A DNA stretch of 64,000 bases from a virus. The stretch is taken from the IMG/VR virus record IMGVR_UViG_3300020438_000012, positions 1 through 64,000 of that record, one strand, 5' to 3'. The first letter of the stretch is position 1; each line of letters begins with the position of its first letter. The position numbers and the translations under genes were made by a program. Shown here one piece after another: positions 8,679 through 56,052 of the stretch. The notes beneath the pieces are model-generated. The model made no database searches. It was not told the origin of the DNA and worked only from the letters and a program-made list of their open reading frames with translations.

Positions 8679-8685
8679 ATACTTA
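8679..8685 (+). promoter_or_regulatory. ATACTTA candidate late promoter
   Basis: Intergenic, 5 nt before ATG 8691; the same heptamer recurs upstream of several structural genes. Confidence 0.55.
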
Positions 8686-32283: not shown

Positions 32284-33100
32284 GCACAACAAGAAAAGAA
32301 ATGTTGGAATCGTGTACCAGCAAGTACTAAGAAGGGCTGCCGAAGCTGCTATTGATGGCGATAAGCCGCATGTAAACGAATGCGTAGAACTTCTAGGCCG
32401 CCATTTTAGACCAGGTACTGAACTGTATAAAGAGCATAAACTATTCAGCTCTATTCTGGAAACCGGTGGAGTTGATGAAAAAACTTCTGAGAAAGTTTTG
32501 TCTATCGTAAAGGAAGTTTCAAGATCTATTGACCAAAATGTAATTGAAAAACAGAAAGGTACATTTATCAACGAAGCAAATCGTGTTTTTGGGAAAGGTC
32601 AACTCTTTAATACACGCGTAAGCAACTACCGAGGACTTGCGACCGTTCAGTTGCTTCTTAACGAATGGAGAAACCCAGGTACTCTAACACCGACTCAGAC
32701 AGCGGAGTACGAAAGACGCCTTCAGGCATACATGATAACCGAAAAACAAGTCCCAACGCTTCAAAAAGAATCTAAGGTTGATGATTTAACCGTCGCAATG
32801 TTTAGAAAGAGATTTGATGATTCCTATGGATCAAAGCTCAGCAACCTTCAGAAAAACTTTGTAGCTGCCGTTGCTTTTAACAAACATGATGTAGTTGAGC
32901 AAATGATTTCAGAAGCAAAGGATAAGGCTATCGAGCTTCTAGATCGTAGACACTTAGGAGAAACTAACAAGCTTCTCTCGGAAAGATATGAAATTGTAAG
33001 AAAAAACATCATAGCATTTAATGGAAGCAGCGAAAGTACGGCATCTATGGCCATGACGCTGTTCAACCTAATCAAAGAGTTGGAGAGTGGCGATGTCTGA
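32273..33100 (+). CDS. head-cluster hypothetical protein
   Basis: KHNKKRNVG N-terminus; lies between portal and protease. Confidence 0.6.
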   Translation: MMSKHNKKRNVGIVYQQVLRRAAEAAIDGDKPHVNECVELLGRHFRPGTELYKEHKLFSSILETGGVDEKTSEKVLSIVKEVSRSIDQNVIEKQKGTFINEANRVFGKGQLFNTRVSNYRGLATVQLLLNEWRNPGTLTPTQTAEYERRLQAYMITEKQVPTLQKESKVDDLTVAMFRKRFDDSYGSKLSNLQKNFVAAVAFNKHDVVEQMISEAKDKAIELLDRRHLGETNKLLSERYEIVRKNIIAFNGSSESTASMAMTLFNLIKELESGDV

Positions 33101-33698
33101 TATTAGACTGATTACATCATGGCAGCCTTTTGAGTATGACTCAAAGATGGTAGCAGAGTCTCGTTTAGAAAATGCCGGAAAAATTATGATGAAAGGTATT
33201 TTGCAAAAAGCAAATACACTAAATCAAAACGGCAGAATTTACCCTCTCCCTATTCTTGAAAGAGAAGTGAGAAACTATCAGAAGTTTATTGAGGAAAAAC
33301 GAGCGCTCGGCGAGTGTGACCATCCAGAAAGTTCTGTGGTAGAACTAAAAAATGCTTCCCACATAATCAGGGAAGCTTACATGGAAGGAGATGTTTGTTG
33401 GGGAACTGTTGAACTCTTAGATACACCATCTGGCAAAATATTACAAAGCCTTGTTGAGTCCGGGGTCACCCTTGGAATATCTTCCCGTGGAGTTGGTTCA
33501 ACTAGAAGGGAAGGCGACTATCAGGTCGTTCAAGATGACTTTCAGCTAATTTGCTGGGATTTTGTTTCAGAGCCTTCAACCCCCGGAGCATTTATGATGA
33601 GAGAAGGTGTTGAAGTAAGAAGATCCGAACTAAACAAGCTGTTTACGAAGTCTGATAGGCTCTTTAGAATATACAACGAAATTACTGAATGGAAGTGA
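33093..33698 (+). CDS. prohead core protease (T4 gp21-like)
   Basis: NQNGRIYP, GECDHP, GISSRGVG, DFVSEPSTPGA; start ATG 33093 after GGAG. Confidence 0.93.
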   Translation: MSDIRLITSWQPFEYDSKMVAESRLENAGKIMMKGILQKANTLNQNGRIYPLPILEREVRNYQKFIEEKRALGECDHPESSVVELKNASHIIREAYMEGDVCWGTVELLDTPSGKILQSLVESGVTLGISSRGVGSTRREGDYQVVQDDFQLICWDFVSEPSTPGAFMMREGVEVRRSELNKLFTKSDRLFRIYNEITEWK

Positions 33699-33708
33699 GG
33701 AAAATAAT

Positions 33709-34167
33709 ATGGCAAAGATTTCTAAGACAGCGCTAAAAGGACTAATCAAGGAATGCCTTGTGGAAATCCTGCAAGAAGGATTGGCTACACAATTAATGGC
33801 TTCAGGTCCAACGCCAAGAAAGAAAAGCCGCCGCAAGCTATCTTCGATTAATTCTGCATCCCCAGGCATGAACGAGCGTTCTGATCCTAGAAATCGCAGA
33901 AACTTCAATCCAACACTCGATACCCCGGTTGCCAGTCTATCTGAAAGAATTTCTCCAACCATCGCGCGCGTATCTAGTGACCCTTCAATTCAGGCATTAC
34001 TTGAAGATACAGCCGCAACAACGTTAAAAAATCAACACAGCGCAGAAAATCAGAGAGGGCCTCAAGCTCAAACCGATGTTCCTCTAGAATCCCTGGGTGT
34101 CAATGTTCGCAACTGGGCAGCCATGGCTTTTTCTGAAGAGAAGAACGATTCGTCTAAACTGGGATAA
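33709..34167 (+). CDS. putative prohead core/internal protein with leader-like N-terminus
   Basis: MAKISKTALKGLIKECLVEILQE resembles the array leader; follows the protease gene. Confidence 0.55.
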   Translation: MAKISKTALKGLIKECLVEILQEGLATQLMASGPTPRKKSRRKLSSINSASPGMNERSDPRNRRNFNPTLDTPVASLSERISPTIARVSSDPSIQALLEDTAATTLKNQHSAENQRGPQAQTDVPLESLGVNVRNWAAMAFSEEKNDSSKLG

Positions 34168-34198: not shown

Positions 34199-34465
34199 AT
34201 GAAAAAAATGTCGGTCACAAGACTTCGTAAATTTATTTTAGAAGAAGCTGCAAAAGTAAACGAGACACTCGAACAAGGTAAAGCAGATGTTGAATCTGTT
34301 AATGCGGATGAAACAGACGCAGAAGATCTTGCTAATACTTTAGAGAAAGATTTAGATCACATGAAAGCTTTAAAGATTCACGAAACAAGAATCCGAAGAA
34401 AGCTTGAAAAGATCTCAGAGGCAAAGAAAACTGTCCGCTCTAGAATTATGAAGAGGCTAAAGTAA
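34199..34465 (+). CDS. putative prohead core/internal protein
   Basis: MKKMSVTRLRKFILEEAAKVNE leader-like start; helical and charged. Confidence 0.55.
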   Translation: MKKMSVTRLRKFILEEAAKVNETLEQGKADVESVNADETDAEDLANTLEKDLDHMKALKIHETRIRRKLEKISEAKKTVRSRIMKRLK

Positions 34466-35578: not shown

Positions 35579-37093
35579 ATGAAAAATTCAATGTACGAAC
35601 AAGCAATTCTGGATGCTCAAAACCTTCGAAAGATGGCTGAAGAGTCCGCAAAAAACAAGCTCATCGAAGCTGTAATGCCACAACTTCGAGAAATTATTGA
35701 GAACGATGTAATTTCTCCAGTAGTGAGCGAATCTATGGAGATCGAAGAAGATCACTGTATGAACGATGCGGAAGAGAAGGAAAATGACGATCTTCTCCTT
35801 GATGAAAACGAGGATGATGAAGACGACATGAATGAAGCCGACATGATGGCGCTGGCGGCATTGGTTGAGGCAACGTCTCACCAAAAAAAGGGTAACCTTA
35901 ACGAAAGACTTTCAATTGTTAGGAAAAAGCTGGCAAGAATGCTGGTGATTTCTGAATCAATAGATCCTAAGCAACTTCAGGCAGACCATGCGTTTGTTTT
36001 TATGAAGAAGCTGAATGCTCTCATTAAAGAAACTATGCAAATCAAAAATGAGGCAATACTTATAAAAGAATCCGGAGACCACCGGTTCTACAATAAATCT
36101 GATAAAACTCTACAGGAGATAAAAGAAATGGCACGTCGTATGAACAGGGGAGTCTTTGCTAGGCTCTTTGAAGCAGATAAGCTTAATGAGCTTGATGCTA
36201 CCCTCGTGCTCGAGCCTTCCGAGGACGAAGCTGATGAGGTCGAGGAGCTACTAGGCGACCTGGACATCGATGTTGAGCTCGGTGGTGCAGACGAGGATGA
36301 GGATGAGGATGATGCAGGCGACATGGACGCTGACGAGGAAGAGGACGATGAAGAAATCGAACTTGACCTTGGCGAAGCTGACATGGACGAAATGGATCAT
36401 GGCAAAAAGGAAGGGTACCACGAGATGGACGAGATGGACGAGATGGATGAGGACATGGACGAGGTCTATGAAATCGACGAGTCTACTCTTCGCCGTGCAC
36501 TTCGAGCCCTTCGAGAAGGTGATGCTGCCGAAAAGGCAGATCAATTTGGTGGAGCTGAAGTCGAAGGCGACGTAATTGTCGACCTTGACGAAGATGATCT
36601 ACTACATGCACTTAATGATGTACTTGGCGACGCTCCGGTTCCGAGACCACCACTTGGTGAGTCACGCCGCAGCCGCCGAAAGTCTAGACGTTCGCGAGTA
36701 AATGAGAGTCGCAAGAATCGTACTCTTATCTCCGAGCTTTCACGGGCCAAAAAGGCCAACGGCGAATTGAAGAAGCATCTCCAAGAGATGAACCTTTTTA
36801 ACGCCAAGCTACTCTACGCAAACAAGCTGATGCAGAATAAGAGCCTCAGTACGCGTCAGCAGAGAGCTGTTGTCGAGGCACTCGATAGTGCCAAGACACT
36901 TAGGGAAGCAAAGCTTCTCTTCCAGAGCCTGTCAAGCGGAGTCAAGAAGGGCAAGGCCCTTTCTGAGTCAACTAGCAGGGTCCGCGGTTCTTCGTCAAAA
37001 TCAACGCCACGTGCTAGCGCTAAGCCGCTACAAGAAGGTGCTGGGCAGACGGATCGTTGGGCAATCTTGGCTGGCATTCCAGGCAAGAAGTAA
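35579..37093 (+). CDS. prohead scaffold/core protein
   Basis: Very acidic centre with MDE repeats, coiled-coil C-terminus (EMNLFNAKLLYANKL), terminal RWAILAGI; directly upstream of the major capsid gene. Confidence 0.8.
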   Translation: MKNSMYEQAILDAQNLRKMAEESAKNKLIEAVMPQLREIIENDVISPVVSESMEIEEDHCMNDAEEKENDDLLLDENEDDEDDMNEADMMALAALVEATSHQKKGNLNERLSIVRKKLARMLVISESIDPKQLQADHAFVFMKKLNALIKETMQIKNEAILIKESGDHRFYNKSDKTLQEIKEMARRMNRGVFARLFEADKLNELDATLVLEPSEDEADEVEELLGDLDIDVELGGADEDEDEDDAGDMDADEEEDDEEIELDLGEADMDEMDHGKKEGYHEMDEMDEMDEDMDEVYEIDESTLRRALRALREGDAAEKADQFGGAEVEGDVIVDLDEDDLLHALNDVLGDAPVPRPPLGESRRSRRKSRRSRVNESRKNRTLISELSRAKKANGELKKHLQEMNLFNAKLLYANKLMQNKSLSTRQQRAVVEALDSAKTLREAKLLFQSLSSGVKKGKALSESTSRVRGSSSKSTPRASAKPLQEGAGQTDRWAILAGIPGKK

Positions 37094-43815: not shown

Positions 43816-46800
43816 ATGGCGGAACAGACATTTAGATCACCAGGCTTCTTTGAGCAGGAGATCGACTTATCCGGTCGAACGCAAGCTGTTGAAGGCGTCC
43901 CGGCAGGAATTATTGGAACATCAAAGCGTGGACCAGCTTTTGTACCTGTTACAATCGGTACTTTTGCCGATTTTCAGCAAACATTCGGTGGACTAGATCC
44001 GAAGCGTTTTGCTCCTTATGCGGTTGAGCAATGGCTTAAGAATAGAACCGCTGTAACTTTTACAAGGGTCTTAGGCGCCGGCGCAAATAGAACAGCCGAA
44101 GATATTGCTCGAACGCGCCAGTATGGCGTTGCAAAGGCTGCAGGGTTCATCATCAGTGGATCTCAGAACGCAGGGGCTTCCTATGCACGTTCACAGGGTT
44201 CTGTAAAGTTTCTCTGTGCTGTGCACGATGCCGTTGCTCAAGAAACGCAAGGTTTCCCTGTCCTTACTGACAATGCGTCGATTGCTAGTGCAGATGCTGC
44301 AAACCTAGTAAGAGGAATGGTTCTTCTAGCTTCCGGAACTTCGATGTTTGTTACGGGAACTGAGTTAGGCCTTAGTTCTATGACTCCAGCCTTGATTGCC
44401 GGAGATACGCTGGCTGACGACGCAACTGCTGATGCATCGGGAGACTTTAGAATTATTCTCTCATCGTCTGCCACTAACTTTACAAACGATGCAGGCAAAA
44501 AGGGTGGAAACACTCAAGCAAAAATCTTTGCAGCATCTTTTGTTCCACAAAGTGAAAACTACATCGGAAAAGTTCTTAACACTGATCCACTAAAATTCCA
44601 GCAAGAGCAGCATCTATTATATGCCGACTTCCTTGTTGAAGACGAACTTGCAACTACAAAGTCAAAAGCGGTAGCAATCGTTTCAGGTTCGGCAACAACC
44701 GCCGCGCAGAGCGCAGCGGGCGGAACAACGGGTAAGTTTGAAGACTTCTTTGGAAGATTCGATGCTAGGTACACAACACCAACCACGACAAACGTAACAT
44801 CTCAGCCTTTCGGAAAAAAGGTTTATGATCTATTCAGGTTTGAAACGCTGGATGATGGTGAGTTTGCAAATAATCGATTTAAGATTTCGATTGCAAACAT
44901 TGTTGCTTCTACAGATCCTTCCAACAAGTTTGGAAAGTTTGATGTTCAGGTAAGAGCATTTAGTGACACGGATCTAGCACCTCAGATTTTAGAAGTATTC
45001 CCAGAGTGTAATCTTGACCCTACGAGTGATCGATATATCGCCGCGGTAGTCGGTGACAAGAAAGTTGTCTTTGATCATGATGCTCAAATTGCGGAAGAGC
45101 GCAGGCTTGTTATTACAGGCAAATATGCGAACGTTTCGAGATTCATAAGAGTGCTTCCGGAAACAGGCGTTCAAGATGGAGACGTTCCTAACGATGCACT
45201 TCCTTTCGGTTTCAGAGGCATTCCGGTTGTTAAGACATCAGATACAATGACCGACACTAAGGCCGCCCTGGCTTTTGATGGGCGGACCCTAGGCGTAGAA
45301 TCAGCATTCAGACTGCACGGCGTTGTTTCGGAGACTAAGGCAACTGCCGCGGCCAACGGTCTAACAGGCTCAATTGTTCCTCCGCTACCTCTTCGCTACA
45401 AAGTCACTCGCGGAGCTACTCTTGGAACTGGATACGAAGGCAATCCTGGCGCCGATGAAAGAACCGACGGTAGATTCTATTGGGGTGTCAAGTTTGAAAA
45501 AATGGCACACACAGAATCGCTAGGAACCCCGGTTCTAAATCCCAATGTTTCTTCAACACCTAATCCTCTAGTTGCAGCATATACCAAGTTAACTGGAATC
45601 TCTAAGCTTGATATGAGCGTTACGGGATCCGGCGCCGATGCGTTTAACAATAATGCTTTCACTCTTTCTCGAGTGGCTGTCGGCCCTGATACGGATAACG
45701 GTACCCCTGCAACTCCGCCTACAAAGTTTGCTGAGATTACTGGATCTGCAAAAGCACACATGCTTTCATCGGTCTACGTAAGAAATGGTACTCTTAAGTC
45801 TAACGTTGTAGACTCAGTTACGCAACAATACGTTGTTGATACTTCGCTAAACTCTAACCGAGTTACTTTGGCGACTTTGCTTGCGTCCTCTTCGGTTGTG
45901 TTTAATAGGTTTACTCCTTTTGCTAAGTTTACAATTCCATTCCACGGTGGCACAGACGGATTCAACTTGCTTGATCCCGATGCCGGCTTTGGCAATGATC
46001 GATCTACGTCACAAGATGCAGGTGGTTTAGCAGGATCGACAGCAGATATCGGCCTAAGAGCAACTTCTTACATTGCTGATGCTCCTGGGGAAAGCACTAA
46101 CGCCATGGGAATTGGTTTTAACAACAACTCAATTTCTTCCTTTAGGACTGCTGCAGAAATTAACACAGACCCGTTTGCGGTTAGGATTAATCTTCTGGCG
46201 ATTCCTGGAATTAAGGATGCGGCAGTTTCAGACTTTGCAAGTGAGCGCATGCGAGATTACAGCCAAGGGTTGTACGTTATGGATATTCCTGAATTTGGAA
46301 TGAAAGACGGAACTACATCAACTCGGCTGTTTGATGACAGCACTCTTCGCGCGGACGTTTTAGAAACTGCTGAGCAATTTGCCGGAAGAGCGCTTGACAA
46401 CAGTTTCGTTACATCATATTTCCCAAGCGTTATTATTGAAGATAGTCAAAACAAGCGTCGAGTCAAGGTTCCGCCTTCGATTGCTGCGCTTGCTGCTTTT
46501 GGTTTTAATGATCGTGTTGCTTATCCATGGTTTGCGCCGGCAGGGTTTAACAGAGGCGCTCTTGAGTTTGTCAAGAATACATCTACTAGACTTACGCAAG
46601 CCGATAGAGATACCCTGTATGAAAACAGGATCAATCCGATTGCAAACTTCCCAACAGGTGGATTTGTTATCTTCGGGCAGAAGACACTTCAGCAGACCTC
46701 CTCTGCACTCGACCGTGTAAATGTTAGAAGAATGTTGCTTGAAGTGAAGAGAATTATTTCCCAAGTTGCAAGAAACCTCTTGTTCGAACAGAATAACGCA

Positions 46801-47025
46801 ACTACGAGGAATCGCTTTGTCTCTCAGACAACGCCGCTTCTTGCGCTTATTCAAGCTCAGCAGGGAATTGAATCTTTTCAAGTTGTCATGGACAATACAA
46901 ATAATACCGAGCTCGACAGAGAGCAAAATAGGCTTAACGGCAGAATTGTTGTGGTCCCAACAAGAGCAATCGAGTTTGTTGCTATTGACTTCATCATAAC
47001 AAATGCCGGAGTATCCTTCGAATGA
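43816..47025 (+). CDS. tail sheath protein 1
   Basis: SPGFFEQEIDLS, RGPAFVP, WFAPAGFNRG, LYENRINPI, IFGQKTLQ, LDRVNVRRML. Confidence 0.95.
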   Translation: MAEQTFRSPGFFEQEIDLSGRTQAVEGVPAGIIGTSKRGPAFVPVTIGTFADFQQTFGGLDPKRFAPYAVEQWLKNRTAVTFTRVLGAGANRTAEDIARTRQYGVAKAAGFIISGSQNAGASYARSQGSVKFLCAVHDAVAQETQGFPVLTDNASIASADAANLVRGMVLLASGTSMFVTGTELGLSSMTPALIAGDTLADDATADASGDFRIILSSSATNFTNDAGKKGGNTQAKIFAASFVPQSENYIGKVLNTDPLKFQQEQHLLYADFLVEDELATTKSKAVAIVSGSATTAAQSAAGGTTGKFEDFFGRFDARYTTPTTTNVTSQPFGKKVYDLFRFETLDDGEFANNRFKISIANIVASTDPSNKFGKFDVQVRAFSDTDLAPQILEVFPECNLDPTSDRYIAAVVGDKKVVFDHDAQIAEERRLVITGKYANVSRFIRVLPETGVQDGDVPNDALPFGFRGIPVVKTSDTMTDTKAALAFDGRTLGVESAFRLHGVVSETKATAAANGLTGSIVPPLPLRYKVTRGATLGTGYEGNPGADERTDGRFYWGVKFEKMAHTESLGTPVLNPNVSSTPNPLVAAYTKLTGISKLDMSVTGSGADAFNNNAFTLSRVAVGPDTDNGTPATPPTKFAEITGSAKAHMLSSVYVRNGTLKSNVVDSVTQQYVVDTSLNSNRVTLATLLASSSVVFNRFTPFAKFTIPFHGGTDGFNLLDPDAGFGNDRSTSQDAGGLAGSTADIGLRATSYIADAPGESTNAMGIGFNNNSISSFRTAAEINTDPFAVRINLLAIPGIKDAAVSDFASERMRDYSQGLYVMDIPEFGMKDGTTSTRLFDDSTLRADVLETAEQFAGRALDNSFVTSYFPSVIIEDSQNKRRVKVPPSIAALAAFGFNDRVAYPWFAPAGFNRGALEFVKNTSTRLTQADRDTLYENRINPIANFPTGGFVIFGQKTLQQTSSALDRVNVRRMLLEVKRIISQVARNLLFEQNNATTRNRFVSQTTPLLALIQAQQGIESFQVVMDNTNNTELDREQNRLNGRIVVVPTRAIEFVAIDFIITNAGVSFE

Positions 47026-47059: not shown

Positions 47060-50000
47060 ATGGCTGAGCTGACTTTTAGAAGCCCCGGCGTTAGCACGAG
47101 GGAGATCGACCTCAGCGGTCCTCAACCGACACAACCTCAGGGAACACCTGCAGCGGTCGTTGGTACCGCAGAGAAAGGTCCGGCATTCGTTCCTGTGACC
47201 TTTGCATCCTATCGGGATTTTGCGTCAAAATTTGGCAACACCGATGGTGAAAAGTTTGGACCAATTGCAATTGCGCAGTGGTTTGCAAACAGGCAAGCCG
47301 GAACTTACTTAAGGGTTCTCGGCGCCGGCGATGGAAAAACAAGAGCCTCAGACGGATCTGTTACGAGAGCAGGCTTTGTCGTTGGCAGCCGGCTTCCTCA
47401 AGCCAGTGGATTGCTGGGAGATAATGTTCATGCAAACACAGGTGGCGTTGGTGAAGGTAGAACATTTTTTCTTGGCTGCTTCATGTCTGAATCAGCCGGA
47501 AGCACGATTTTTTCTGAAGCGGGATTAACTGGTAATAAGGCACACTCTATTCTCCGTGGCGTTATTCTGGCTCCTTCCGGAGTTGTTCCATTCCTTTCTT
47601 CAACACTCGAAACCGATAACGCTCCAAACGCCGCGGCTGGAGCTGCTGGTATTCCAAACTCGGCAGGTGGATCAGATGCCGGAGCATTGATTGGAACTGT
47701 TAATAAAGTTTCTCAAGAGTTTGTTCTTCTCCTTAATGGTCTTAAGCAAACCGAAAGCGAAGGAAAGAATATTATTACAGCTTCTTTCGATCCGCAAGCT
47801 TCCAATTATTTCCCTAATGTCCTTAACACTGATCCGCTTCTTATCGAGTCTCAAGGTCATTTACTTTACCGTCATTATGACGTCTACAGTTCATATGCTC
47901 AAATTACAGGAAGCGGATATGCCGGAAGCCTAGGCGCTCCCGTTCTCGGTGGAAATTTAGAGCAGGCAGCCTTTATTACAACAGGGTCACTTGCTAAGAA
48001 TACCCAGTCTGCAGAAGTTCCAAACTTCGAAGCATTCAAAGATCGCTTCCAACATGCATTCTCTCCGTTCGTTGTTTCACAGAAATTTGGTGGTTCACCT
48101 ACAAACCTCTTTAAGGTCCACTGCTTAGATGCTGGCTTGTATCCAAATAAGCGGTTTAAGGTAAGTGTTGAAAACATTCAGAAGTCCAACAATCCAGACG
48201 TTAAGTTTGGAAAGTTTGACGTTGTTGTGCGAGAATTTGGCGATGATGACAGAAACCTAAGAGTTCTCGAAGCTTTCCGTGGCCTCTCTATTGATCCAAA
48301 TTCAGAGAGATATGTCGCACGCGTCATTGGCGATCTAAACACTTTCTACGACTTTGATCAGAGACCCGGTAGCCAGAAGGTTGTTGTTGAGGGTAAGTTC
48401 CCTAATTCGTCAAACCTTATTCGAGTTCAGATGAACTCTGTGGTTGATGACGGAGAAATTGACCAAGAAGCTCTCCCGGTTGGCTTCAGAGGATTAAACC
48501 ACCTCGTCACATCAGGAACTACCGCTGCTGGAAACGTTATGTTAGCGTCAACCGGTTCAACGGTTGGAGCTGTCGTTCATGTTTCGGCTTCATTGTTTAA
48601 GGGAACACCTGTTGAGCCACCTGTTCCATTCCGCAGAAACGTTGCAGTTGGAACCGGTACTGCTAAGAGATCAGATGCTCAGCTTTACTGGGGCGCTCAA
48701 TTTGAGCCTCTGGACAGCTTGACACTGCCCAACAAGAATAACGCACCTCAAATCCAGCGTTCTCCGATGGATGCATACACAAATTACTTTGCAAACTACC
48801 ATGTTGGTTCAAGAAATCCATCTGTCGGTGGTAACGAAGGAACGGCAAACGACGGCGGTGTTGTTCTAGACGCAGATGCGTTTAACAACAACATCTTCTC
48901 CCTAGAGAGGGTTCAGGTCGTAACAAGTTCAACCGACGTTGTTGATTCCAAGGAATGGCAGGCAGCCGTTTACAGAAGAGACGAAGCACTGGCTTCGAGC
49001 CTTACTAAGAATGATGGAGTCACTCAACCTGGAAGATTCTTGAACATTGATAAAGACTTTGGTGATATTGCATCTAAGCAATTCTTTAAGTTCTCATTCC
49101 CGGTTCAAGGTGGGTTTGACGGAGTAAACATCTTCGACGATGACAAGTCAAACCTTCTTGATGTTGCTATCAAGCGAGAGGTTGCCGACTCTAATCAGGG
49201 CGGCATCAACGGACCAACCGTACAGTCTTACAGAAAGGCTATAGACATTCTAGAAGAAAAGTCAGATGTCGACATTCAGTTGCTTGCAATTCCAGGTATC
49301 CGTCAGTCGCAGGTCACAGACTATGCCATTGACGCCGTTGAGAACAGGTTCGATGCTCTCTACATTATGGACATCCCTGTTAGCGATGCCGAAAACAATG
49401 AAATTACCGGGTCGGCCGGCCTGCCAAATGTAACAAACACTGTTACGACATTCAAGGGTCGCCCACTCGATAGCAGCTTTGCCGCAGCGTACTTCCCCGA
49501 CGTCGTCGTCACTGATCCAACTACCAACACTAACGTGCAAGTGCCGCCAAGTGTTGCTGTTCTCGGTGCCTTCGGTCTCAACGATGCCGTGGCTTTCCCT
49601 TGGTTCGCGCCTGCCGGGTTTGCCCGCGGTGCTCTTGCAGCCTCTGAGGTCGCAGTTAAGACGAACAGATCAAACCTCGATGCTCTATACGACGCTAGGA
49701 TTAATCCGATTACGGTATTCCCAGGTCAGGGTGGCCCAACGATCTTTGGACAGAAAACGTTGCAGGCCGCAGAGTCTGCGCTTGATCGTGTTAATGTTCG
49801 TCGCCTCCTTATCGAGATCAGACGCCAGGTCCGGCAGGTCGCGAACACCTTTATCTTCGAGCCGAACAGGGAGACGACGCTTGCTCGATTCTCTGGCGCG
49901 GTAACTCCGATCCTTAATAGAATTCAGCAGCAGCAAGGTGTTGATAGGTTCAGAGTGCAGATTGATACGACAACAACGACCCAGGCGGACGTTGAGAACA

Positions 50001-50095
50001 ACACGGTGAGAGGAAAGATTTTCCTCCAGCCTACTCGCTCCGTCGAGTTCATCTCTCTTGACTTCGTCGTTTCGAACGCCGGTGCAGAGATCTAA
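47060..50095 (+). CDS. tail sheath protein 2
   Basis: SPGVSTREIDLS, KGPAFVP, WFAPAGFARG, LYDARINPI, IFGQKTLQ, LDRVNVRRLL, FEPN. Confidence 0.95.
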   Translation: MAELTFRSPGVSTREIDLSGPQPTQPQGTPAAVVGTAEKGPAFVPVTFASYRDFASKFGNTDGEKFGPIAIAQWFANRQAGTYLRVLGAGDGKTRASDGSVTRAGFVVGSRLPQASGLLGDNVHANTGGVGEGRTFFLGCFMSESAGSTIFSEAGLTGNKAHSILRGVILAPSGVVPFLSSTLETDNAPNAAAGAAGIPNSAGGSDAGALIGTVNKVSQEFVLLLNGLKQTESEGKNIITASFDPQASNYFPNVLNTDPLLIESQGHLLYRHYDVYSSYAQITGSGYAGSLGAPVLGGNLEQAAFITTGSLAKNTQSAEVPNFEAFKDRFQHAFSPFVVSQKFGGSPTNLFKVHCLDAGLYPNKRFKVSVENIQKSNNPDVKFGKFDVVVREFGDDDRNLRVLEAFRGLSIDPNSERYVARVIGDLNTFYDFDQRPGSQKVVVEGKFPNSSNLIRVQMNSVVDDGEIDQEALPVGFRGLNHLVTSGTTAAGNVMLASTGSTVGAVVHVSASLFKGTPVEPPVPFRRNVAVGTGTAKRSDAQLYWGAQFEPLDSLTLPNKNNAPQIQRSPMDAYTNYFANYHVGSRNPSVGGNEGTANDGGVVLDADAFNNNIFSLERVQVVTSSTDVVDSKEWQAAVYRRDEALASSLTKNDGVTQPGRFLNIDKDFGDIASKQFFKFSFPVQGGFDGVNIFDDDKSNLLDVAIKREVADSNQGGINGPTVQSYRKAIDILEEKSDVDIQLLAIPGIRQSQVTDYAIDAVENRFDALYIMDIPVSDAENNEITGSAGLPNVTNTVTTFKGRPLDSSFAAAYFPDVVVTDPTTNTNVQVPPSVAVLGAFGLNDAVAFPWFAPAGFARGALAASEVAVKTNRSNLDALYDARINPITVFPGQGGPTIFGQKTLQAAESALDRVNVRRLLIEIRRQVRQVANTFIFEPNRETTLARFSGAVTPILNRIQQQQGVDRFRVQIDTTTTTQADVENNTVRGKIFLQPTRSVEFISLDFVVSNAGAEI

Positions 50096-50108: not shown

Positions 50109-50115
50109 ATACTTA
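50109..50115 (+). promoter_or_regulatory. ATACTTA candidate late promoter
   Basis: Intergenic, before AGGAG SD and tail tube ATG 50135. Confidence 0.65.
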
Positions 50116-50134: not shown

Positions 50135-50623
50135 ATGGCAGAGACACTTTCAGTCACCGATATGTTGCCGAACAAGTTTGAGCCGAAGCGACAGTTTCGG
50201 TGGGTGTTCGCGATCGAGGGTATCGACGCGTTCCTCATGAAGACTGCTGCTCGTCCAACAATTAACACCGAGGAAGTGACGATTCCTTTTATCAACTCAA
50301 CTCGCTACATCGCCGGCAAAACAACGTTTGATACGCTCAGCGTTACGCTCCACGATCCGATTGCACCTTCCGGTGCACAGCAGGTTATGGAATGGATCCG
50401 CACCCACTTTGAGTCTGTTTCAGGCCGCGCTGGTTATGCCGACTTTTACAAGCGAGATTGCCAGATCAAGATGCTTGACCCGGTCGGCACCGTCGTAGAG
50501 CTTTGGGACATCAAAGGATCGTTTATTACTTCTGCCGGGTTTGGAGACTTGAGCTACGATTCCTCAGATCCTTCTGAGATTTCGCTAACACTTAGGTTTG
50601 ATAATTGCGTCCTGCAGTTCTGA
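50135..50623 (+). CDS. tail tube protein (T4 gp19-like)
   Basis: FEPKRQFRW, YIAGK, VTLHDPI, QQVMEW, YKRDCQIKMLDPVG, ISLTLRFD; follows the sheath genes. Confidence 0.9.
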   Translation: MAETLSVTDMLPNKFEPKRQFRWVFAIEGIDAFLMKTAARPTINTEEVTIPFINSTRYIAGKTTFDTLSVTLHDPIAPSGAQQVMEWIRTHFESVSGRAGYADFYKRDCQIKMLDPVGTVVELWDIKGSFITSAGFGDLSYDSSDPSEISLTLRFDNCVLQF

Positions 50624-50639
50624 TGTAGGGAAAACACTG

Positions 50640-50930
50640 ATGAAAATCACAAAACGACAACTTAGAAGAATCATCAAGGAGGCAATGCACTCCGAGTATG
50701 AGGATCTCTTCGACAACTCCCCGCCTCGACGCAAGGAGTCAATGCACTCCGACCCTCGCGAAGAAGCGCGAGATATTCTGCGACACTACGATATGATAGC
50801 GTCAGATGTTGGCGAGATCTATGTTGATGATTTAATCGATCACTGGGTTGGTCAAGGAAACCCTTCGCCAGGCCCTGGTGTTCGGGCGGAATTGATCAAG
50901 CTAAATTACGGAAACGAATATTTTAGGTGA
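50640..50930 (+). CDS. leader-array protein 1
   Basis: MKITKRQLRRIIKEA; start 50640 rather than 50598. Confidence 0.8.
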   Translation: MKITKRQLRRIIKEAMHSEYEDLFDNSPPRRKESMHSDPREEARDILRHYDMIASDVGEIYVDDLIDHWVGQGNPSPGPGVRAELIKLNYGNEYFR

Positions 50931-50939
50931 TGGTTTAAA

Positions 50940-51206
50940 ATGCGAATTACAAAGCGACAGCTTAAAACAATCATTAAGGAAGAGAGGTTCCGTCTTTTGA
51001 ACGAGGCCTCGCTTCAGCGTTCCAAGGCCCAGGTAGAAAATGCTTTGGGCAGCTTGCTCGTTGATTACATGGAAGAGCACTTGGACATGAGCGGCTCAAA
51101 TAGAGAAGACGCTTTGCGTCGTGCAAAGGAAGACCTCAAAAGCTTCGTTCGTGGCGCAATTGCAAACGCAGTAGACTTTGAACGAGATCCGCAGTCATAC
51201 ACTTGA
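50940..51206 (+). CDS. leader-array protein 2
   Basis: MRITKRQLKTIIKEERFRLLNE. Confidence 0.8.
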   Translation: MRITKRQLKTIIKEERFRLLNEASLQRSKAQVENALGSLLVDYMEEHLDMSGSNREDALRRAKEDLKSFVRGAIANAVDFERDPQSYT

Positions 51207-51224
51207 TACACTTAGGGAAATACA

Positions 51225-51488
51225 ATGAAAATTACAAAGAGACAACTTAGAAGAATCATCAAGGAAGAGAGAACGCGCATTCTCAGTGAGAACATGCATG
51301 ACGCTCAGGGTTTCTACGAGAAGAAGCTCACAATTCTCAACACAGCACTTTCGGCCCTAGAGGCAGCCAAGGATCACGAGAGAACAAGTGCAATGGGCGA
51401 AGATCCTGATCTAAACCAGCTTGTTAACATGGTCATTGGTTACATCGATGCCGTTGGTTCCATGGTTCAAATGGGAAGGCGCAGATAA
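51225..51488 (+). CDS. leader-array protein 3
   Basis: MKITKRQLRRIIKEERTRILSE. Confidence 0.8.
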   Translation: MKITKRQLRRIIKEERTRILSENMHDAQGFYEKKLTILNTALSALEAAKDHERTSAMGEDPDLNQLVNMVIGYIDAVGSMVQMGRRR

Positions 51489-51489
51489 A

Positions 51490-51828
51490 ATGAAAATCAC
51501 TAAAAGACAACTAAGAAGAATCATCAAGGAAGCCGCTATGCCGGGAGAAATGGTCAAAGTCACCGTTTCAATGGACGTTCCGTTCGGCTTGTTCCTTGAT
51601 GTCGACGACCGCCGGCCGAACCCAGAAATGGAAAGTTTGGAAGATATTGAGATGAATATCGAGGACGCATTGCGCGACTGGTTACAGCAATCTCTCAGAG
51701 AATTTCAGGGAGGCAACAGTGCTGCGTTTAAGGGCAAGCAGGGTGTTGAGCAACTTAGTCATGTCGAAATAATTGAAACCGCAACCTATTCAGCAATGGA
51801 TGACATCAAAGTATCAGTGAAGAGGTAA
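51490..51828 (+). CDS. leader-array protein 4
   Basis: MKITKRQLRRIIKEA; start 51490 rather than 51421. Confidence 0.8.
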   Translation: MKITKRQLRRIIKEAAMPGEMVKVTVSMDVPFGLFLDVDDRRPNPEMESLEDIEMNIEDALRDWLQQSLREFQGGNSAAFKGKQGVEQLSHVEIIETATYSAMDDIKVSVKR

Positions 51829-51830
51829 CC

Positions 51831-52091
51831 ATGAAAATCACAAAGTCACAACTGAAGAGAATCATCAAGGAAGAAAGAGCTAAACTCGTGAACGAGGCTC
51901 CTTCGGAAGACCTTATTACACTAGCCGCCATAGAAAACCATATTGGCATGCTAAAGCGTATGCTTGATGTGGCGGTAGACGGGGGCATGATGTCCTACAA
52001 TGAACATGACGACCTGGTCGACGCGCTCTACGATGTGGAAGGCGCGCTTCAAAAAGTAGCAGAAGGCGGCTCCGGCGCTCCGAGTTTCTAA
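51831..52091 (+). CDS. leader-array protein 5
   Basis: MKITKSQLKRIIKEERAKLVNE. Confidence 0.8.
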   Translation: MKITKSQLKRIIKEERAKLVNEAPSEDLITLAAIENHIGMLKRMLDVAVDGGMMSYNEHDDLVDALYDVEGALQKVAEGGSGAPSF

Positions 52092-52107
52092 AAGGATTAC
52101 CAAGCAT

Positions 52108-52524
52108 ATGAAAATCACGAAGCGCCAGCTTAGAAGAATCATCAAGGAAGAGTTGACTCGCGGTAGATACGATGAGTTAACCGACGAGTTGTCAGACTTG
52201 TACTCCAAGATCGAAGACGCAAAAAGTTTACCTGAACCAAATCGCACTGCCTCTTTTCAGTTTTACCAGAATGCCATCAATCAGCTTCAAGCTTATCTTG
52301 CAAAAGCTCGTGCGGAAGGCCTTTCAGAAATAAGCGAAGACTCGAATCCCGGTGATTACTACGCCAGAAAGGATCGAGAAGCTCGCGCACTTTCCGGCCA
52401 AGTTAATGCAATGCGTAAAAAGTTAAGCGGTTTACGTCAAGGTTCTCCCGAGCATCGCAAAGCCACTAAAGAACTCCGGGGACTAGAACAACGCCTTGAG
52501 TTAGCAAAGTATGTAGGAGATTAA
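52108..52524 (+). CDS. leader-array protein 6
   Basis: MKITKRQLRRIIKEEL. Confidence 0.8.
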   Translation: MKITKRQLRRIIKEELTRGRYDELTDELSDLYSKIEDAKSLPEPNRTASFQFYQNAINQLQAYLAKARAEGLSEISEDSNPGDYYARKDREARALSGQVNAMRKKLSGLRQGSPEHRKATKELRGLEQRLELAKYVGD

Positions 52525-52525
52525 C

Positions 52526-52795
52526 ATGAAAATTGCAAAACGACAGCTTAGAAGAATTATCAGGGAAGAGAAGCAGAGAGTCATCAATGAAAAACTTGCC
52601 GGACACCAGCATCAAAGACTGCTTGAAGACATTAGCATCATGTTTGAGAAAGAAATAAACACAAGGCTCAGCCAGGTCGACGGCGACTGGTATAGAGACC
52701 CTGAAACAGTGCAGGCTGTATCCGATATGCTTGACATGCTAAAGCGGCAAATGAAGTCATATGGGAAAGAGCGCTCTTGGTGGAGGGAGCGGTGA
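52526..52795 (+). CDS. leader-array protein 7
   Basis: MKIAKRQLRRIIREEKQRVINE. Confidence 0.8.
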   Translation: MKIAKRQLRRIIREEKQRVINEKLAGHQHQRLLEDISIMFEKEINTRLSQVDGDWYRDPETVQAVSDMLDMLKRQMKSYGKERSWWRER

Positions 52796-53058
52796 AAATC
52801 ACAAGGCACCAACTCAGAAGAATCATTAAGGAAGAGAAGGCCCGGCTAGCCGAGGCAAACCCTGACGGAACTGTGTCCGACAACGAGGATGCAGAGATTT
52901 TTGTCTTTCTTGCCGACGTTGAGGAACGCATCGAAGAGCTCGCGCAATTCATTGTAATGGAGTCTGAGAGAATCGGTGGTCGCTTCAGAGCACCCGGGCT
53001 TAGAAAGAGAGCGTTTCAGTCGATCCTCGAAATCATTCGTGAAGACTATAGGTTTTAG
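52792..53058 (+). CDS. leader-array protein 8
   Basis: GTG start at 52792 after GGAGGGAG; (M)KITRHQLRRIIKEEKARLAE. Confidence 0.8.
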   Translation: MKITRHQLRRIIKEEKARLAEANPDGTVSDNEDAEIFVFLADVEERIEELAQFIVMESERIGGRFRAPGLRKRAFQSILEIIREDYRF

Positions 53059-53130
53059 AGTTTCGCGACGAAGCTCGTCAGCGTATCATGAACAATTTAG
53101 AGCACGCTTCAAACCAAAAAGGAAAGTAAA

Positions 53131-53556
53131 ATGAGAATCACAAAGAGGCAGCTTAGAAGAATTATTAAGGAAGAGAGATCACGTCTGCTTGCGGAGACCC
53201 GCGTTCGCCGTTTTGTAAGACGAAAGCTTATGGAACAGCGCGGAACTGCGGTCATTGATGAACTTGCCGTGGACTTGCTGAGGGATCTCACCATGTATCA
53301 CCAGCGAGGCGTCGACTCTCTGGCTAATGAGTACAGATCTAGAGTTGCTGCACTTGGGCTTAGCAGAGAAGATTTCGAGGAGCAACTCGGCGATGCCTTC
53401 ACTGACGGTGATCCAGAGGCTGCATCTCGTTTTGAAGAGTATCGTGATGAGGAAGACGCAATGCGCGACGGAATGCCTCACAACGAAGAGATGGCTGCAG
53501 CATGGGACGACTTTGGTTTGATCCGGCGTGATTTGGCAGCAGCACTGTACCGATAG
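53131..53556 (+). CDS. leader-array protein 9
   Basis: MRITKRQLRRIIKEERSRLLAE; C-terminal domain shared with protein 10. Confidence 0.8.
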   Translation: MRITKRQLRRIIKEERSRLLAETRVRRFVRRKLMEQRGTAVIDELAVDLLRDLTMYHQRGVDSLANEYRSRVAALGLSREDFEEQLGDAFTDGDPEAASRFEEYRDEEDAMRDGMPHNEEMAAAWDDFGLIRRDLAAALYR

Positions 53557-53564
53557 GAAGTTCT

Positions 53565-54455
53565 GTGCGAATTAGAATTACGAGAACTCAGCTGCGTAGA
53601 GTCATTAGGGAATCCTGCCGCAGGATGGGTTCTCGTAATTCCTCTATTCGCTTGCTAGAAGATAATCACACCTATTGGGACCGATACCACGCGAAATGGC
53701 TCGAAACCGCACAGATGAGTGAGGAAGATTTTCAAGCGCTCGCGGACGAGTACAGGGCCATGGCCGCCGCCGGTGAAAAGGCGGCGAAGGGATACAAGGA
53801 GCGCGACCCAGACAACGTCCCTCAGGGTCCATGGACCGGTAATCGCGAGTATTGGAAAAACCCTGACATGAAAGGTTACAAGTTTACAGCGCGTCATCGG
53901 AATGTCGTCCCGCCCATGAATCTTGACATTCGACCCGAATACCCTATATTGTTTGGTATGTCTCTCGAAGATGCTTACAATATCCACGCGGCCTCGCCCG
54001 CCGGGTTATATCCCTATGGTTCTGGCAAGCCGGCGGGGACGGGGTACGCGGACTACGTGGAATACTACACGCGGAAAGACGTGAAGGCTCGCATTGCTCA
54101 AGCGAAAAAAAAATTCGCAAGTACACCGAAAGCCAAGCGTGATTTTGAAGACGAGCGCTACAGATGGGCGATCTGGCAGGTCGGCGACGAAGGACCTCCA
54201 GAAGCAGTCATAGATGATCTTGCTTTGGACTTGTTGAGAAACGTTCGCAAGTACGCCAAGAGCGGCGTCGGGCGCCTGGCCGGCAGATACAGGAAAAAAA
54301 TCCTTAAGCTTGGAATGAGTAAGGAAGATTTTGACACTGCGTTTGGCGATGCCATGACGGACGGTGATCCAGAAGTCTCTGACCGATTTTACAGGTACAA
54401 GGGTGATGATCTCCCGCAACTCATAAATGACTTAGTGTCAAAAATATATCGATAA
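53565..54455 (+). CDS. leader-array protein 10
   Basis: MRIRITRTQLRRVIRES; C-terminal GDAMTDGDPE domain shared with protein 9. Confidence 0.8.
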   Translation: MRIRITRTQLRRVIRESCRRMGSRNSSIRLLEDNHTYWDRYHAKWLETAQMSEEDFQALADEYRAMAAAGEKAAKGYKERDPDNVPQGPWTGNREYWKNPDMKGYKFTARHRNVVPPMNLDIRPEYPILFGMSLEDAYNIHAASPAGLYPYGSGKPAGTGYADYVEYYTRKDVKARIAQAKKKFASTPKAKRDFEDERYRWAIWQVGDEGPPEAVIDDLALDLLRNVRKYAKSGVGRLAGRYRKKILKLGMSKEDFDTAFGDAMTDGDPEVSDRFYRYKGDDLPQLINDLVSKIYR

Positions 54456-54464
54456 GGAATTTCA

Positions 54465-54659
54465 ATGCGAATCACAAAGCGCCAGCTTAAAAGAATCATT
54501 CTCGAAATGTACCATGATGACCAGCCGGATAGCATCTCGCAGAGACTAAAACTACGAAATGATATCGGAGAGCTGTCAATGAGCTTTGTTAGAACCGGTC
54601 TTGACAGAGACGAGGTTGCAGGAATCTTGCGTGACGTTGCAGACGGAATTGAGAGATAG
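54465..54659 (+). CDS. leader-array protein 11
   Basis: MRITKRQLKRIILEM. Confidence 0.75.
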   Translation: MRITKRQLKRIILEMYHDDQPDSISQRLKLRNDIGELSMSFVRTGLDRDEVAGILRDVADGIER

Positions 54660-54727
54660 TAAAAAAACGTAAGCTCTCTATTTATCTTTTACACAACCAC
54701 GTTATGATTGTGTGAGAGGTTTATAGT

Positions 54728-55555
54728 ATGAGCAACCGTGGATCAAACGCCGTCTTTTCGGGTGGCATTCAACAAACAGACGTAATGAAGGATTCTTTCG
54801 GCTACGAAGTGCCGGTTGAATCTGTTCCCCTGCCATCGCTTGGAAAGGCGTATCCAGAAGGAAACCCTCTCAGCGGTCAGGAAACCGTTGAGATTCGGGC
54901 AATGACAGCAAGAGAGGAAGATATCCTAACCTCTCGTGCGCTTATTAAAAAGGGCACTGTTATCACCCATCTTATTAAGTCTTGCCTCACAAACAAGTCT
55001 ATCGATGTCCGGAACATGATTTCTGGCGATCGTAACGCTTTGATGATCTCGCTGCGAATCACGGGTTACGGCCAAGAGTACGGTGTCGAGGTTGAGTGTC
55101 CGGCATGCGGAACTCGCTCAAAACAAGACTTTGATCTTGCAGCACTCGAGGTTAAGACCCTTGATATCGACCCGGTCACTCCCGGTACAAACGAATTTGA
55201 ATTTGTTCTTCCGGTTACAAAGAAAAAAGTAACCTTTAAGTTTCTAACAGGGGCAGACGAAGAAGAGATTGCAGTTGTTCAAGAGCGCAAGAAGAAGAGT
55301 GGCTTTAAGTCCGATAATCTTATTACAACGCGCCTTATGTATTCCATTGTTTCAATCGACGGAATTACGGACAAATCAAAAATCAACGGCTTTATTCGAA
55401 ACATGCCGGCTCGAGACTCACTCTTACTTCGCCGCTATATTGATCAGAATGAGCCAGGCATCGACATGAAGTCTTGGATGTCCTGCCAGAGTTGCTTTAC
55501 TGATTCGGAGGTACGGTTGCCACTGGGCGCCACGTTTTTTTGGCCTGACGCCTAG
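54728..55555 (+). CDS. tail/baseplate-hub assembly chaperone (T4 gp26-like)
   Basis: VPLPSLG, MTAREEDIL, LRITGYG, CPACG and CQSC Zn knuckles, FFWP end; upstream of the tape measure gene. Confidence 0.75.
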   Translation: MSNRGSNAVFSGGIQQTDVMKDSFGYEVPVESVPLPSLGKAYPEGNPLSGQETVEIRAMTAREEDILTSRALIKKGTVITHLIKSCLTNKSIDVRNMISGDRNALMISLRITGYGQEYGVEVECPACGTRSKQDFDLAALEVKTLDIDPVTPGTNEFEFVLPVTKKKVTFKFLTGADEEEIAVVQERKKKSGFKSDNLITTRLMYSIVSIDGITDKSKINGFIRNMPARDSLLLRRYIDQNEPGIDMKSWMSCQSCFTDSEVRLPLGATFFWPDA

Positions 55556-55805
55556 CGACAAAGAGGTCTACCTCGAACAGATCTTTCTCTTGATGTACTA
55601 CATGGGCTTCAGCTATAACGAAGGCTATGACCTTCCGATCTGGAAGCGGGTGTGGTTTATCAAGAGAATTAACGATGAGATTAAGAAGTCTAACGATGCC
55701 AACGCCCCGGCTTCTCGTGCTGCTCACGATAACACACCCGATCAAAGAGCGGTTTCAGGTAGAAGTCGTGCAAACGTTCCTGCAAAGCTCAGAAGGTTCA
55801 CATAA
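55536..55805 (+). CDS. downstream chaperone segment, probably reached by frameshift from 54728
   Basis: The frame is open from the run of 7 T: FFGLTPSDKEVYLEQIFLLMYYMGFSYNEGYDLPIWKRVWFI; no well-spaced SD for 55590/55593. Confidence 0.6.
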   Translation, partial: FFGLTPSDKEVYLEQIFLLMYYMGFSYNEGYDLPIWKRVWFIKRINDEIKKSNDANAPASRAAHDNTPDQRAVSGRSRANVPAKLRRFT

Positions 55806-56045: not shown

Positions 56046-56052
56046 ATACTTA
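56046..56052 (+). promoter_or_regulatory. ATACTTA candidate late promoter
   Basis: Intergenic, before GAGG SD and GTG 56071. Confidence 0.6.

Follow-up and report, generated by a model that had tools for sequence, protein, structure and literature searches.

The question raised by this locus is why eleven adjacent small genes of an uncultured marine T4-like phage should begin with the same short peptide and then encode proteins that differ from one another. The locus lies in IMG/VR virus record IMGVR_UViG_3300020438_000012, a single viral contig of 102,473 bp with a CheckV completeness of ~40% (the whole phage genome is probably roughly 250 kb). The window analysed here is the stretch of 64,000 nucleotides at positions 1 to 64,000 of that record. 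The common N-terminal peptide, termed the leader, is probably a capsid-targeting tag, a diverged and expanded analogue of the tag on the internal proteins of phage T4, and we hold this reading with moderate confidence; the remainder of each protein is termed the cargo. On this reading, the system extends the known T4 internal-protein principle and is not a new principle. What is new is the rank test linking the leader to the genes behind the prohead protease gene, the conservation of the cleavage column in the capsid protein, the four-way comparison of leader-cargo cassettes with breakpoints at the leader, and the finding that isolate genomes lack it.

A common leader on eleven small genes

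Eleven consecutive open reading frames (ORFs) on the + strand, between 50640 and 54659, all open with M[KR]IT[KR]xQL[RK]xII[KRL]E, and are 96, 88, 87, 112, 86, 138, 89, 88, 141, 296 and 64 amino acids (aa) long, in that order. This run had been described in an initial annotation of the window, and was borne out by the ORF starts, by a back-translated leader pattern (9 matches in the window vs 0 in 100 shuffles) and by a 22-residue hidden Markov model (HMM) of the leader, which recovered exactly 13 genes from the 102,473-bp contig. These were the eleven array genes and two genes outside the window, at 68439 and 68654, located just before gp32-like and UvsX-like replication genes. The array genes are given below with, where relevant, the isoelectric point (pI) of the cargo and the occurrence of the cargo in the sister contigs used for comparison, which were three from IMG/VR (L069, L045 and L099) and a partial fourth (L030).

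50640..50930, + strand: leader gene 1, 96 aa, MKITKRQLRRIIKEA..., cargo pI 4.8; relatives absent from the three sister contigs
50940..51206, + strand: leader gene 2, 88 aa, MRITKRQLKTIIKEERFRLLNE..., second site LLNE
51225..51488, + strand: leader gene 3, 87 aa, second site ILSE
51490..51828, + strand: leader gene 4, 112 aa, MKITKRQLRRIIKEA..., cargo pI 4.4; found in this contig only
51831..52091, + strand: leader gene 5, 86 aa, second site LVNE
52108..52524, + strand: leader gene 6, 138 aa; residues 1-78 are 64-70% identical to 82-aa cassettes of L069 and L099
52526..52795, + strand: leader gene 7, 89 aa, MKIAKRQLRRIIREEKQRVINE; unique cargo
52792..53058, + strand: leader gene 8, 88 aa, GTG start, 4-nt overlap with the preceding stop
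53131..53556, + strand: leader gene 9, 141 aa, second site LLAE; its C-terminal domain has a paralogue in gene 10
53565..54455, + strand: leader gene 10, 296 aa, GTG start, two residues inserted into the leader (MRIRITRTQLRRVIRE); sole basic cargo of the array, pI 8.8
54465..54659, + strand: leader gene 11, 64 aa, MRITKRQLKRIILE; cargo shared with L045 and L099 at 63-69% identity

The leader columns M1, I3, Q7, L8, I12 and E14 are invariant in the array, and the leader ends in [ILV]-[IL]-x-E14 in all 13 genes of the contig. An extended module, EE[KR]x[KR]-hydrophobic-hydrophobic-x-E, is present in 6 of the 11 array genes, and the second hydrophobic-x-E sites reported at the outset (LLNE, ILSE, LVNE, VINE and LLAE, plus RLAE) were all recovered. 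Past the leader the divergence of the cargo, first described as mostly complete, is complete except for a C-terminal domain common to genes 9 and 10 (53131 and 53565), the sole array pair with common cargo (51% identity over 69 aa).

Selection on the leader acts at the protein level and not on the DNA, because codon position 3 is far more variable than positions 1+2 (nucleotide identity of 0.55 vs 0.80) and the invariant residues I, Q and L are encoded by several synonymous codons (2-5, with five for Leu8). No conservation was found in the DNA upstream of the array genes, including the ribosome-binding regions. The leader forms a basic amphipathic helix whose single hydrophobic face comprises I3, L8, I11 and I12 and then residues 16, 19 and 20. 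An AlphaFold2 (AF2) model of the 86-aa member, built on a 64-sequence alignment with a predicted local distance difference test (pLDDT) value of 82, contained a helix at residues 5-22, a low-confidence break at residues 23-26 and a two-helix hairpin. The helix and the weak spot in this model suggest that the leader module would be a separate helix preceding the cargo.

Spread of the leader and turnover of the cassettes

An exact-pattern scan of IMG/VR returned at least 120 loci with at least 222 leader ORFs; the percentages, medians and consensus given here for IMG/VR refer to the matches listed. Together with the 13 genes of the contig, these ORFs bear out the expectation that the leader would be found on unrelated cargo. 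The leader-bearing contigs listed span 4-293 kb and the leader ORFs are often in tandem. The consensus is MKITK-x-QL-[KR]-[QR]-IIKEE and, beyond the pattern, position 15 is E in 77% and A in 13%, position 16 is hydrophobic in 71%, positions 19 and 20 are hydrophobic, and position 22 is E in 40%. A second [LIVMF]-x-E ending at residue 21 or 22 was present in 51% of the leader proteins.

In a set of 5.8 billion proteins, 644 short and 290 long leader matches were obtained, all of which were metagenomic and unnamed. The leader is carried by hundreds to thousands of uncharacterised proteins of uncultured marine viral contigs. Among 185,579 bacterial and archaeal species genomes (596 Gb), only 12 stretches were found, on 8 contigs of 6 metagenome-assembled genomes (MAGs), and no isolate bacterial genome in this collection carried the leader; the leader is thus virus-specific and not mainly cellular, as a viral packaging tag should be. 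A gp21-type protease was present in three of the five leader-bearing MAGs tested. A nucleotide search of the array against cultured phages gave no match, and no paper containing the leader motif was found in a full-text literature search with leader substrings.

Five long metagenome ORFs (P0137, P0138, P0142, P0148 and P0170) contain 2-4 complete leader copies, each with its own Met, and join separate cargo units into one chain. Such chains may be true polyproteins, or else cassettes that were fused and still have their internal starts.

In the window, the array is bounded by two tail genes, and a heptamer is located upstream of the first of these:

50109..50115, + strand: ATACTTA heptamer, located 26 nt 5' of the tube gene and followed by the next copy at 56046, ahead of the tape measure gene
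50135..50623, + strand: left flank, T4 gp19-like tail tube gene, 96-97% identical (aa) in the sister contigs
54728..55555, + strand: right flank, T4 baseplate protein (PF12322, gp26-like), 93-95% identical in the sister contigs

The array content was predicted to vary among relatives, and this was clearly the case. Between flanks that are 93-97% identical, 11 cassettes are present in the window and 5, 11 and 11 in the sisters L069, L045 and L099. A total of 21 cargo clusters was counted over the five loci, five of which were unique to this window and one of which was present in all. Cassette order was changed, and domains were fused or split, across the sister loci; for instance, the C-terminal 54 aa of leader gene 3 are found within longer or shorter cassettes at all four sister loci. 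The cargo of leader gene 8 is 91% identical in L069 and L030 and 58-73% identical in L099.

Nucleotide homology of the left flank with the sisters stops at 50675-50680, in the last codons of the first leader, and restarts at 54656-54677, past the last cassette; leader-only nucleotide matches of 60-75 nt were observed between cassettes. These breakpoints, with an A-rich start (ATGAAAATCACAAAA), would be compatible with the leader being a module of DNA or translation, that is a recombination joint or an A-rich translation-initiation region whose peptide has no function. Such a module would account neither for the variability of codon position 3 and the five codons of Leu8, nor for upstream ribosome-binding regions that are not conserved, nor for the retention of the peptide across lineages with differing codon choices, and we consider it highly improbable.

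The position of the array, between the tail tube gene and the gp26-like baseplate gene in this phage and three sisters, might instead indicate that the leader directs proteins to the tail lumen or baseplate and not to the head. In a cultured relative, Microcystis phage Mel-JY01, the tube gene is directly followed by a 290-aa ORF annotated as hypothetical, which was taken as the counterpart of 54728 by its position and similar N-terminus. As the tube gene of Mel-JY01 adjoins this counterpart, the array appears to have been inserted between the two genes. In other lineages the arrays are far from tail genes, and the N-termini that most resemble the leader belong to the head module (described below). 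A tail address is accordingly very unlikely in our judgement. The gene behind the array (54728-55805 of the window) matches PF12322 (57.8 bits) and phrog_150 ('baseplate hub') rather than a tail assembly chaperone.

The intergenic gaps of the array range from -4 to 72 nt, and scans for sigma-70 promoters and terminators within it gave chance-level results only. The ATACTTA heptamer occurs 12-28 nt upstream of seven structural gene starts (copies at 8679, 18896, 34172, 35551, 40580, 50109 and 56046), and 13 copies were counted on the + strand of the 102-kb contig vs ~6 expected for a 7-mer. The heptamer is a candidate late promoter or initiation-region element. With one copy before the tube gene and the next only at 56046, the array is probably part of the tube transcription unit, and would thus be co-transcribed with the tube gene and expressed late.

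The head module and the packaging reading

The head genes of the contig are of T4 type and include a large terminase, a portal (phrog_213), a prohead protease and a major capsid protein (phrog_138). The following are relevant to the leader:

33093..33698, + strand: prohead protease, T4 gp21 type (Peptidase_S77), the presumed leader-removing enzyme
33709..34167, + strand: small head-module gene 1, directly 3' of the protease gene, MAKISKTALKGLIKECLVEIL...; most leader-like N-terminus of the non-array genes
34199..34465, + strand: small head-module gene 2, MKKMSVTRLRKFILEEAAKVNE...; second most leader-like N-terminus
35579..37093, + strand: acidic scaffold protein, gp22 analogue, with conserved N- and C-terminal helices
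37123..39030, + strand: major capsid protein, gp23-like; A-L-R-E61 aligns with F-L-T-E65 of T4 gp23

The assignment of a gp21-like protease at 33093, made in the initial annotation, was confirmed by PF03420 (90.6 bits), phrog_207 (1.4e-48), 31% identity to T4 gp21 and PDB 5JBL (2e-15). In the capsid protein, A-L-R-E61 sits in the one invariant Glu column, that of T4 gp23 E65, the established maturation site. The presence of L-R-E61 in this column suggests that hydrophobic-x-Glu specificity is probably retained. The nearest capsid proteins were those of an uncultured huge phage, Microcystis phage Mel-JY01, Flavobacterium 'immuto' phages and Rhodothermus phage RM378.

The first 30 residues of each gene of the contig were scored against the leader consensus. 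Among ~98 non-array genes, the top two N-termini were those of both genes right after the protease gene, namely 33709 (MAKISKTALKGLIKECLVEIL) with a score of 34 and 34199 (MKKMSVTRLRKFILEE) with a score of 28. Scores of at least 28 were reached in ~0.2% of random internal 30-aa windows, all from one site in another gene. Both post-protease families are retained, with the same type of start, in 13 leader-bearing relatives. A tblastn search of the two small post-protease proteins against 50,697 phage records gave no match. Homology of the leader to the head-module or scaffold proteins was dropped on the basis of the leader HMM (E above 10), and the resemblance measured by the rank test was kept.

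A further leader-like segment (RRIRSIIREELSKK, HMM E of 0.18) is internal to a 355-aa DUF5824 protein encoded outside the window, at 98130-99197 on the minus strand (L175). Minus-strand ORFs are few on the contig, and this is the sole one with a family match; outside the array, no second internal segment resembles the leader.

The initial annotation also expected the leader to be confined to phages with this type of protease. A phrog_207 protease was found in 22 of 30 leader-bearing contigs of at least 50 kb, among the matches listed, and in all six of those that are at least 90% complete; the eight contigs without it are at most 58% complete. This part of the expectation stands, while the inference from co-occurrence to function is confounded by ancestry, as considered below.

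A mechanism can be proposed on this basis. Late in infection and before shell closure, the basic amphipathic helix (residues ~3-22) would dock unrelated small proteins on the prohead core, which would consist of the acidic scaffold and of the small core proteins encoded beside the protease. The candidate receptor for the basic leader is the strongly acidic scaffold, the product of 35579-37093; core proteins bearing a similar helix could also serve as its partner. The gp21-type prohead protease would then cut after the invariant Glu14 of I-I-K-E and, in about half of the proteins, possibly a second time after the hydrophobic-x-E at residue 21-22, releasing mature cargo inside the head. Multiple cut sites in propeptides are known for related proteases, which cut after Glu (PMC5694885), and the second x-E site would fit this multi-cut clearance of propeptides (PMC5694885). 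After release, the cargo may be retained and injected, or expelled. Recombination at or beside the leader-coding DNA would add, remove, reorder and fuse the cassettes of leader and cargo. We infer each step of this route, from docking and cleavage to persistence in the virion and entry into the next host.

The closest known system is that of T4, whose internal proteins are a diverse set with a capsid-targeting sequence (CTS) as the sole common part, by which they are encapsidated into the scaffolding core (PMC3012670). The T4 internal head proteins join the core by means of this targeting sequence before gp21 removes the propeptides (PMC5694885). As here, the T4 CTS (of IPI, IPII, IPIII and Alt) is a short N-terminal peptide on unrelated proteins that ends in hydrophobic-x-Glu, the protease is of gp21 type, the internal-protein loci (polymorphic among T-even phages) are hypervariable between close relatives, and the tag resembles the start of a head protein, in T4 the scaffold protein (gp22 MLKEQLIAEA vs CTS MKTYQEFIAEA). 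The two systems differ in that the leader has 14-22 residues, is strongly basic and often has a second site, whereas the T4 CTS has 10 residues; that at least 13 leader genes are present in this partial genome, and up to 35 elsewhere, compared with 3-4 in T4; and that packaging and cutting have been proven in T4 and are predicted here.

Other packaging systems are less similar. The ejection or inner-body proteins of phiKZ, 201phi2-1 and SPN3US also comprise many packaged proteins, in a large capsid, with a gp21-related protease (PMC5694885). The N-terminal propeptides of these giant phages are cut after Glu, sometimes at several sites, and the SPN3US paralogues gp53 and gp54 have an identical 15-residue start (PMC5694885). 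Compared with the text of that study, the phiKZ/SPN3US type has long family-specific propeptides, A/S/G-x-E sites, an S80 protease and larger proteins in paralogue families, whereas one short universal leader, I-x-E and an S77 protease were found here. The cargo-loading peptides of encapsulins are likewise short and conserved and send diverse cargo inside an HK97-fold shell; they are usually C-terminal, bind the shell directly, are not removed, are non-viral and have no sequence relation to the leader. The MuF polymorphic toxins and the Dar proteins of phage P1 are variable head payloads, for which an action upon entry into the host has been proposed or shown; they differ by a large MuF domain or by ordered protein-protein loading (DarA, Hdf) and have no short cleavable leader.

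The packaging reading is favoured by the unrelated cargo, the distribution, the turnover, the motif and the look-alikes beside the protease gene, and several observations weigh against it. In sequence the leader is unrelated to the T4 CTS, the M-K start and the I-x-E end being all that they have in common; T4 ipII and ipIII share MKTYQEFIAE followed by A (read from NC_000866). The cargo is mostly acidic (pI ~4.7), whereas T4 ipII and ipIII are basic (pI 9.6). The strict 22-residue leader HMM misses the head-module proteins and the PQLREIIE segment of the scaffold protein, both with E above 10. The motif [ILV]-x-E is of low information, with 2-3 occurrences per 100 aa within the cargo too, and so cannot by itself define cutting. 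The genes at 68439 and 68654 are beside replication genes and not in the structural operon, and enzymes that would not need packaging in order to act (polynucleotide kinase, 2H phosphoesterase) occur among the cargo elsewhere. No cultured carrier was found, as tblastn of two leader proteins against 50,697 phage records gave chance-level matches only. The leader is restricted to lineages of T4-like phages and, to our knowledge, all of these have gp21, so the link between leader and protease is confounded by ancestry and may be no more than a reflection of it.

Some of these observations would also fit an uncleaved docking helix that attaches diverse small proteins to one hub outside the capsid (for example the inner membrane, a host machine or a phage-encoded factor). 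Binding to a membrane or partner is likewise compatible with a basic helix that is hydrophobic on one face, two members adjoin replication genes, part of the cargo is enzymatic, and phage host-takeover genes typically encode small acidic orphan proteins. The docking helix leaves unexplained why Glu is invariant, within an I-x-E frame, in the middle of the helix and why a second x-E follows eight residues on, the fact that the best look-alikes are both genes beside the prohead protease gene, and the presence of an 11-gene array without its own promoter inside a tail operon; we regard it as unlikely.

Nature and possible role of the cargo

After residue 14, the cargo of the array has a pI of 4.3-5.6 in eight genes, of ~7 in two and of 8.8 in one (gene 10). 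Nothing above threshold was found in Pfam and PHROGs for the 10 array members scanned (all except 54465), and an ESM Atlas search with two cargo proteins gave no usable match. For gene 10 (296 aa), an exhaustive HMMER search of 1.84 billion representative proteins returned two relatives, one of which is probably its own paralogue. A single-sequence AF2 model of the 141-aa member had a pLDDT of 52, at which level only an all-helical prediction can be put forward. The IMG/VR cargo has a median pI of 4.7, with 79% below 6, and a median length of 108 aa. A Pfam match was obtained for just 7 of the 110 longest leader proteins (AAA_33 kinase twice, 2H phosphoesterase, FliG_C, EF-hand and two DUFs), and ~95% of the cargo has no recognisable domain.

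The AAA_33 matches place the leader on a P-loop polynucleotide-kinase-like protein (phrog_505) at L098:297-1510 and L067:4786-5502; in L098 a second leader gene immediately precedes the kinase gene. The 2H phosphoesterase match is to the tRNA_lig_CPD family. The leader-tagged kinases and the 2H phosphoesterase resemble an RNA-repair set. Arg as the final residue is in weak (2.6-fold) excess in the IMG/VR leader proteins, and Cys is very rare in their cargo (0.4%). Tyr in the last six residues is weakly enriched (26% vs 18% expected, p ~0.002, from non-independent sequences), and this C-terminal signal was set aside as evidence.

The composition of the cargo bears on a further possibility, in which the proteins are targeted to the prohead core and cut there, and the acidic helical cargo serves as expendable accessory scaffold mass for a large capsid, being lost at maturation by degradation or expulsion and not passed on to the next host. 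In its acidity and largely helical make-up the cargo resembles scaffold proteins, and acidic core fragments exit the T4 head (PMC5694885). The number of leader genes also peaks in the largest records, with 9-35 (one at 1) in records of 240-293 kb vs 1-8 in records of 123-190 kb. Neither 21 unrelated cargo families among four near-identical phages nor enzyme domains are needed for bulk, and leader counts range from 1 to 35 in records of similar size; a role as core filler is distinctly improbable.

If the leader is instead a capsid-targeting tag for proteins that are kept in the head, the array might represent a first-strike library, packed in the capsid, matured by the head protease and injected with the DNA as takeover or anti-defence effectors. 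Acidic DNA-mimic-like proteins and RNA-repair enzymes would be examples of its content. The carriers of such a large and fast-turning library would be uncultured T4-like and jumbo phages of the ocean. This proposal, including its extension to these phages, is tentative and to our mind somewhat doubtful. The role of the cargo in anti-defence or as effectors is purely inferential, and the effector claim is weakened by the fact that nearly all cargo cannot be annotated.

Were the packaging reading correct, it would allow the in-head proteins of abundant uncultured marine T4-like and jumbo phages to be listed from sequence, and would indicate where in the cell hundreds to thousands of orphan proteins belong and probably also when they act. 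The T4 internal-protein principle would then be a widespread and greatly expanded strategy and not a T-even curiosity, and the leader would provide a second packaging tag, unrelated to the first, with which foreign proteins could be loaded into capsids. It would also point to a pool of candidate counter-defence proteins and, if the first-strike proposal holds as well, one motif of 14 residues would suffice for reading the injected proteome from metagenomes. If the packaging reading is wrong, the leader is still among the most widespread uncharacterised peptide modules of ocean viromes, for which another explanation would be needed.

Several other genes of the contig were recorded. Two tandem tail-sheath-like genes, at 43816-47025 (1069 aa) and 47060-50095 (1011 aa), are ~35% identical and are kept in the sisters; such a duplicated giant sheath gene is unusual. 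Outside the window, judging from N-terminal sequence alone, there appear to be genes for a DnaE-type polymerase III alpha subunit (1204 aa, 76821-80435) and a GroEL-like chaperonin (532 aa, 93537-95135).

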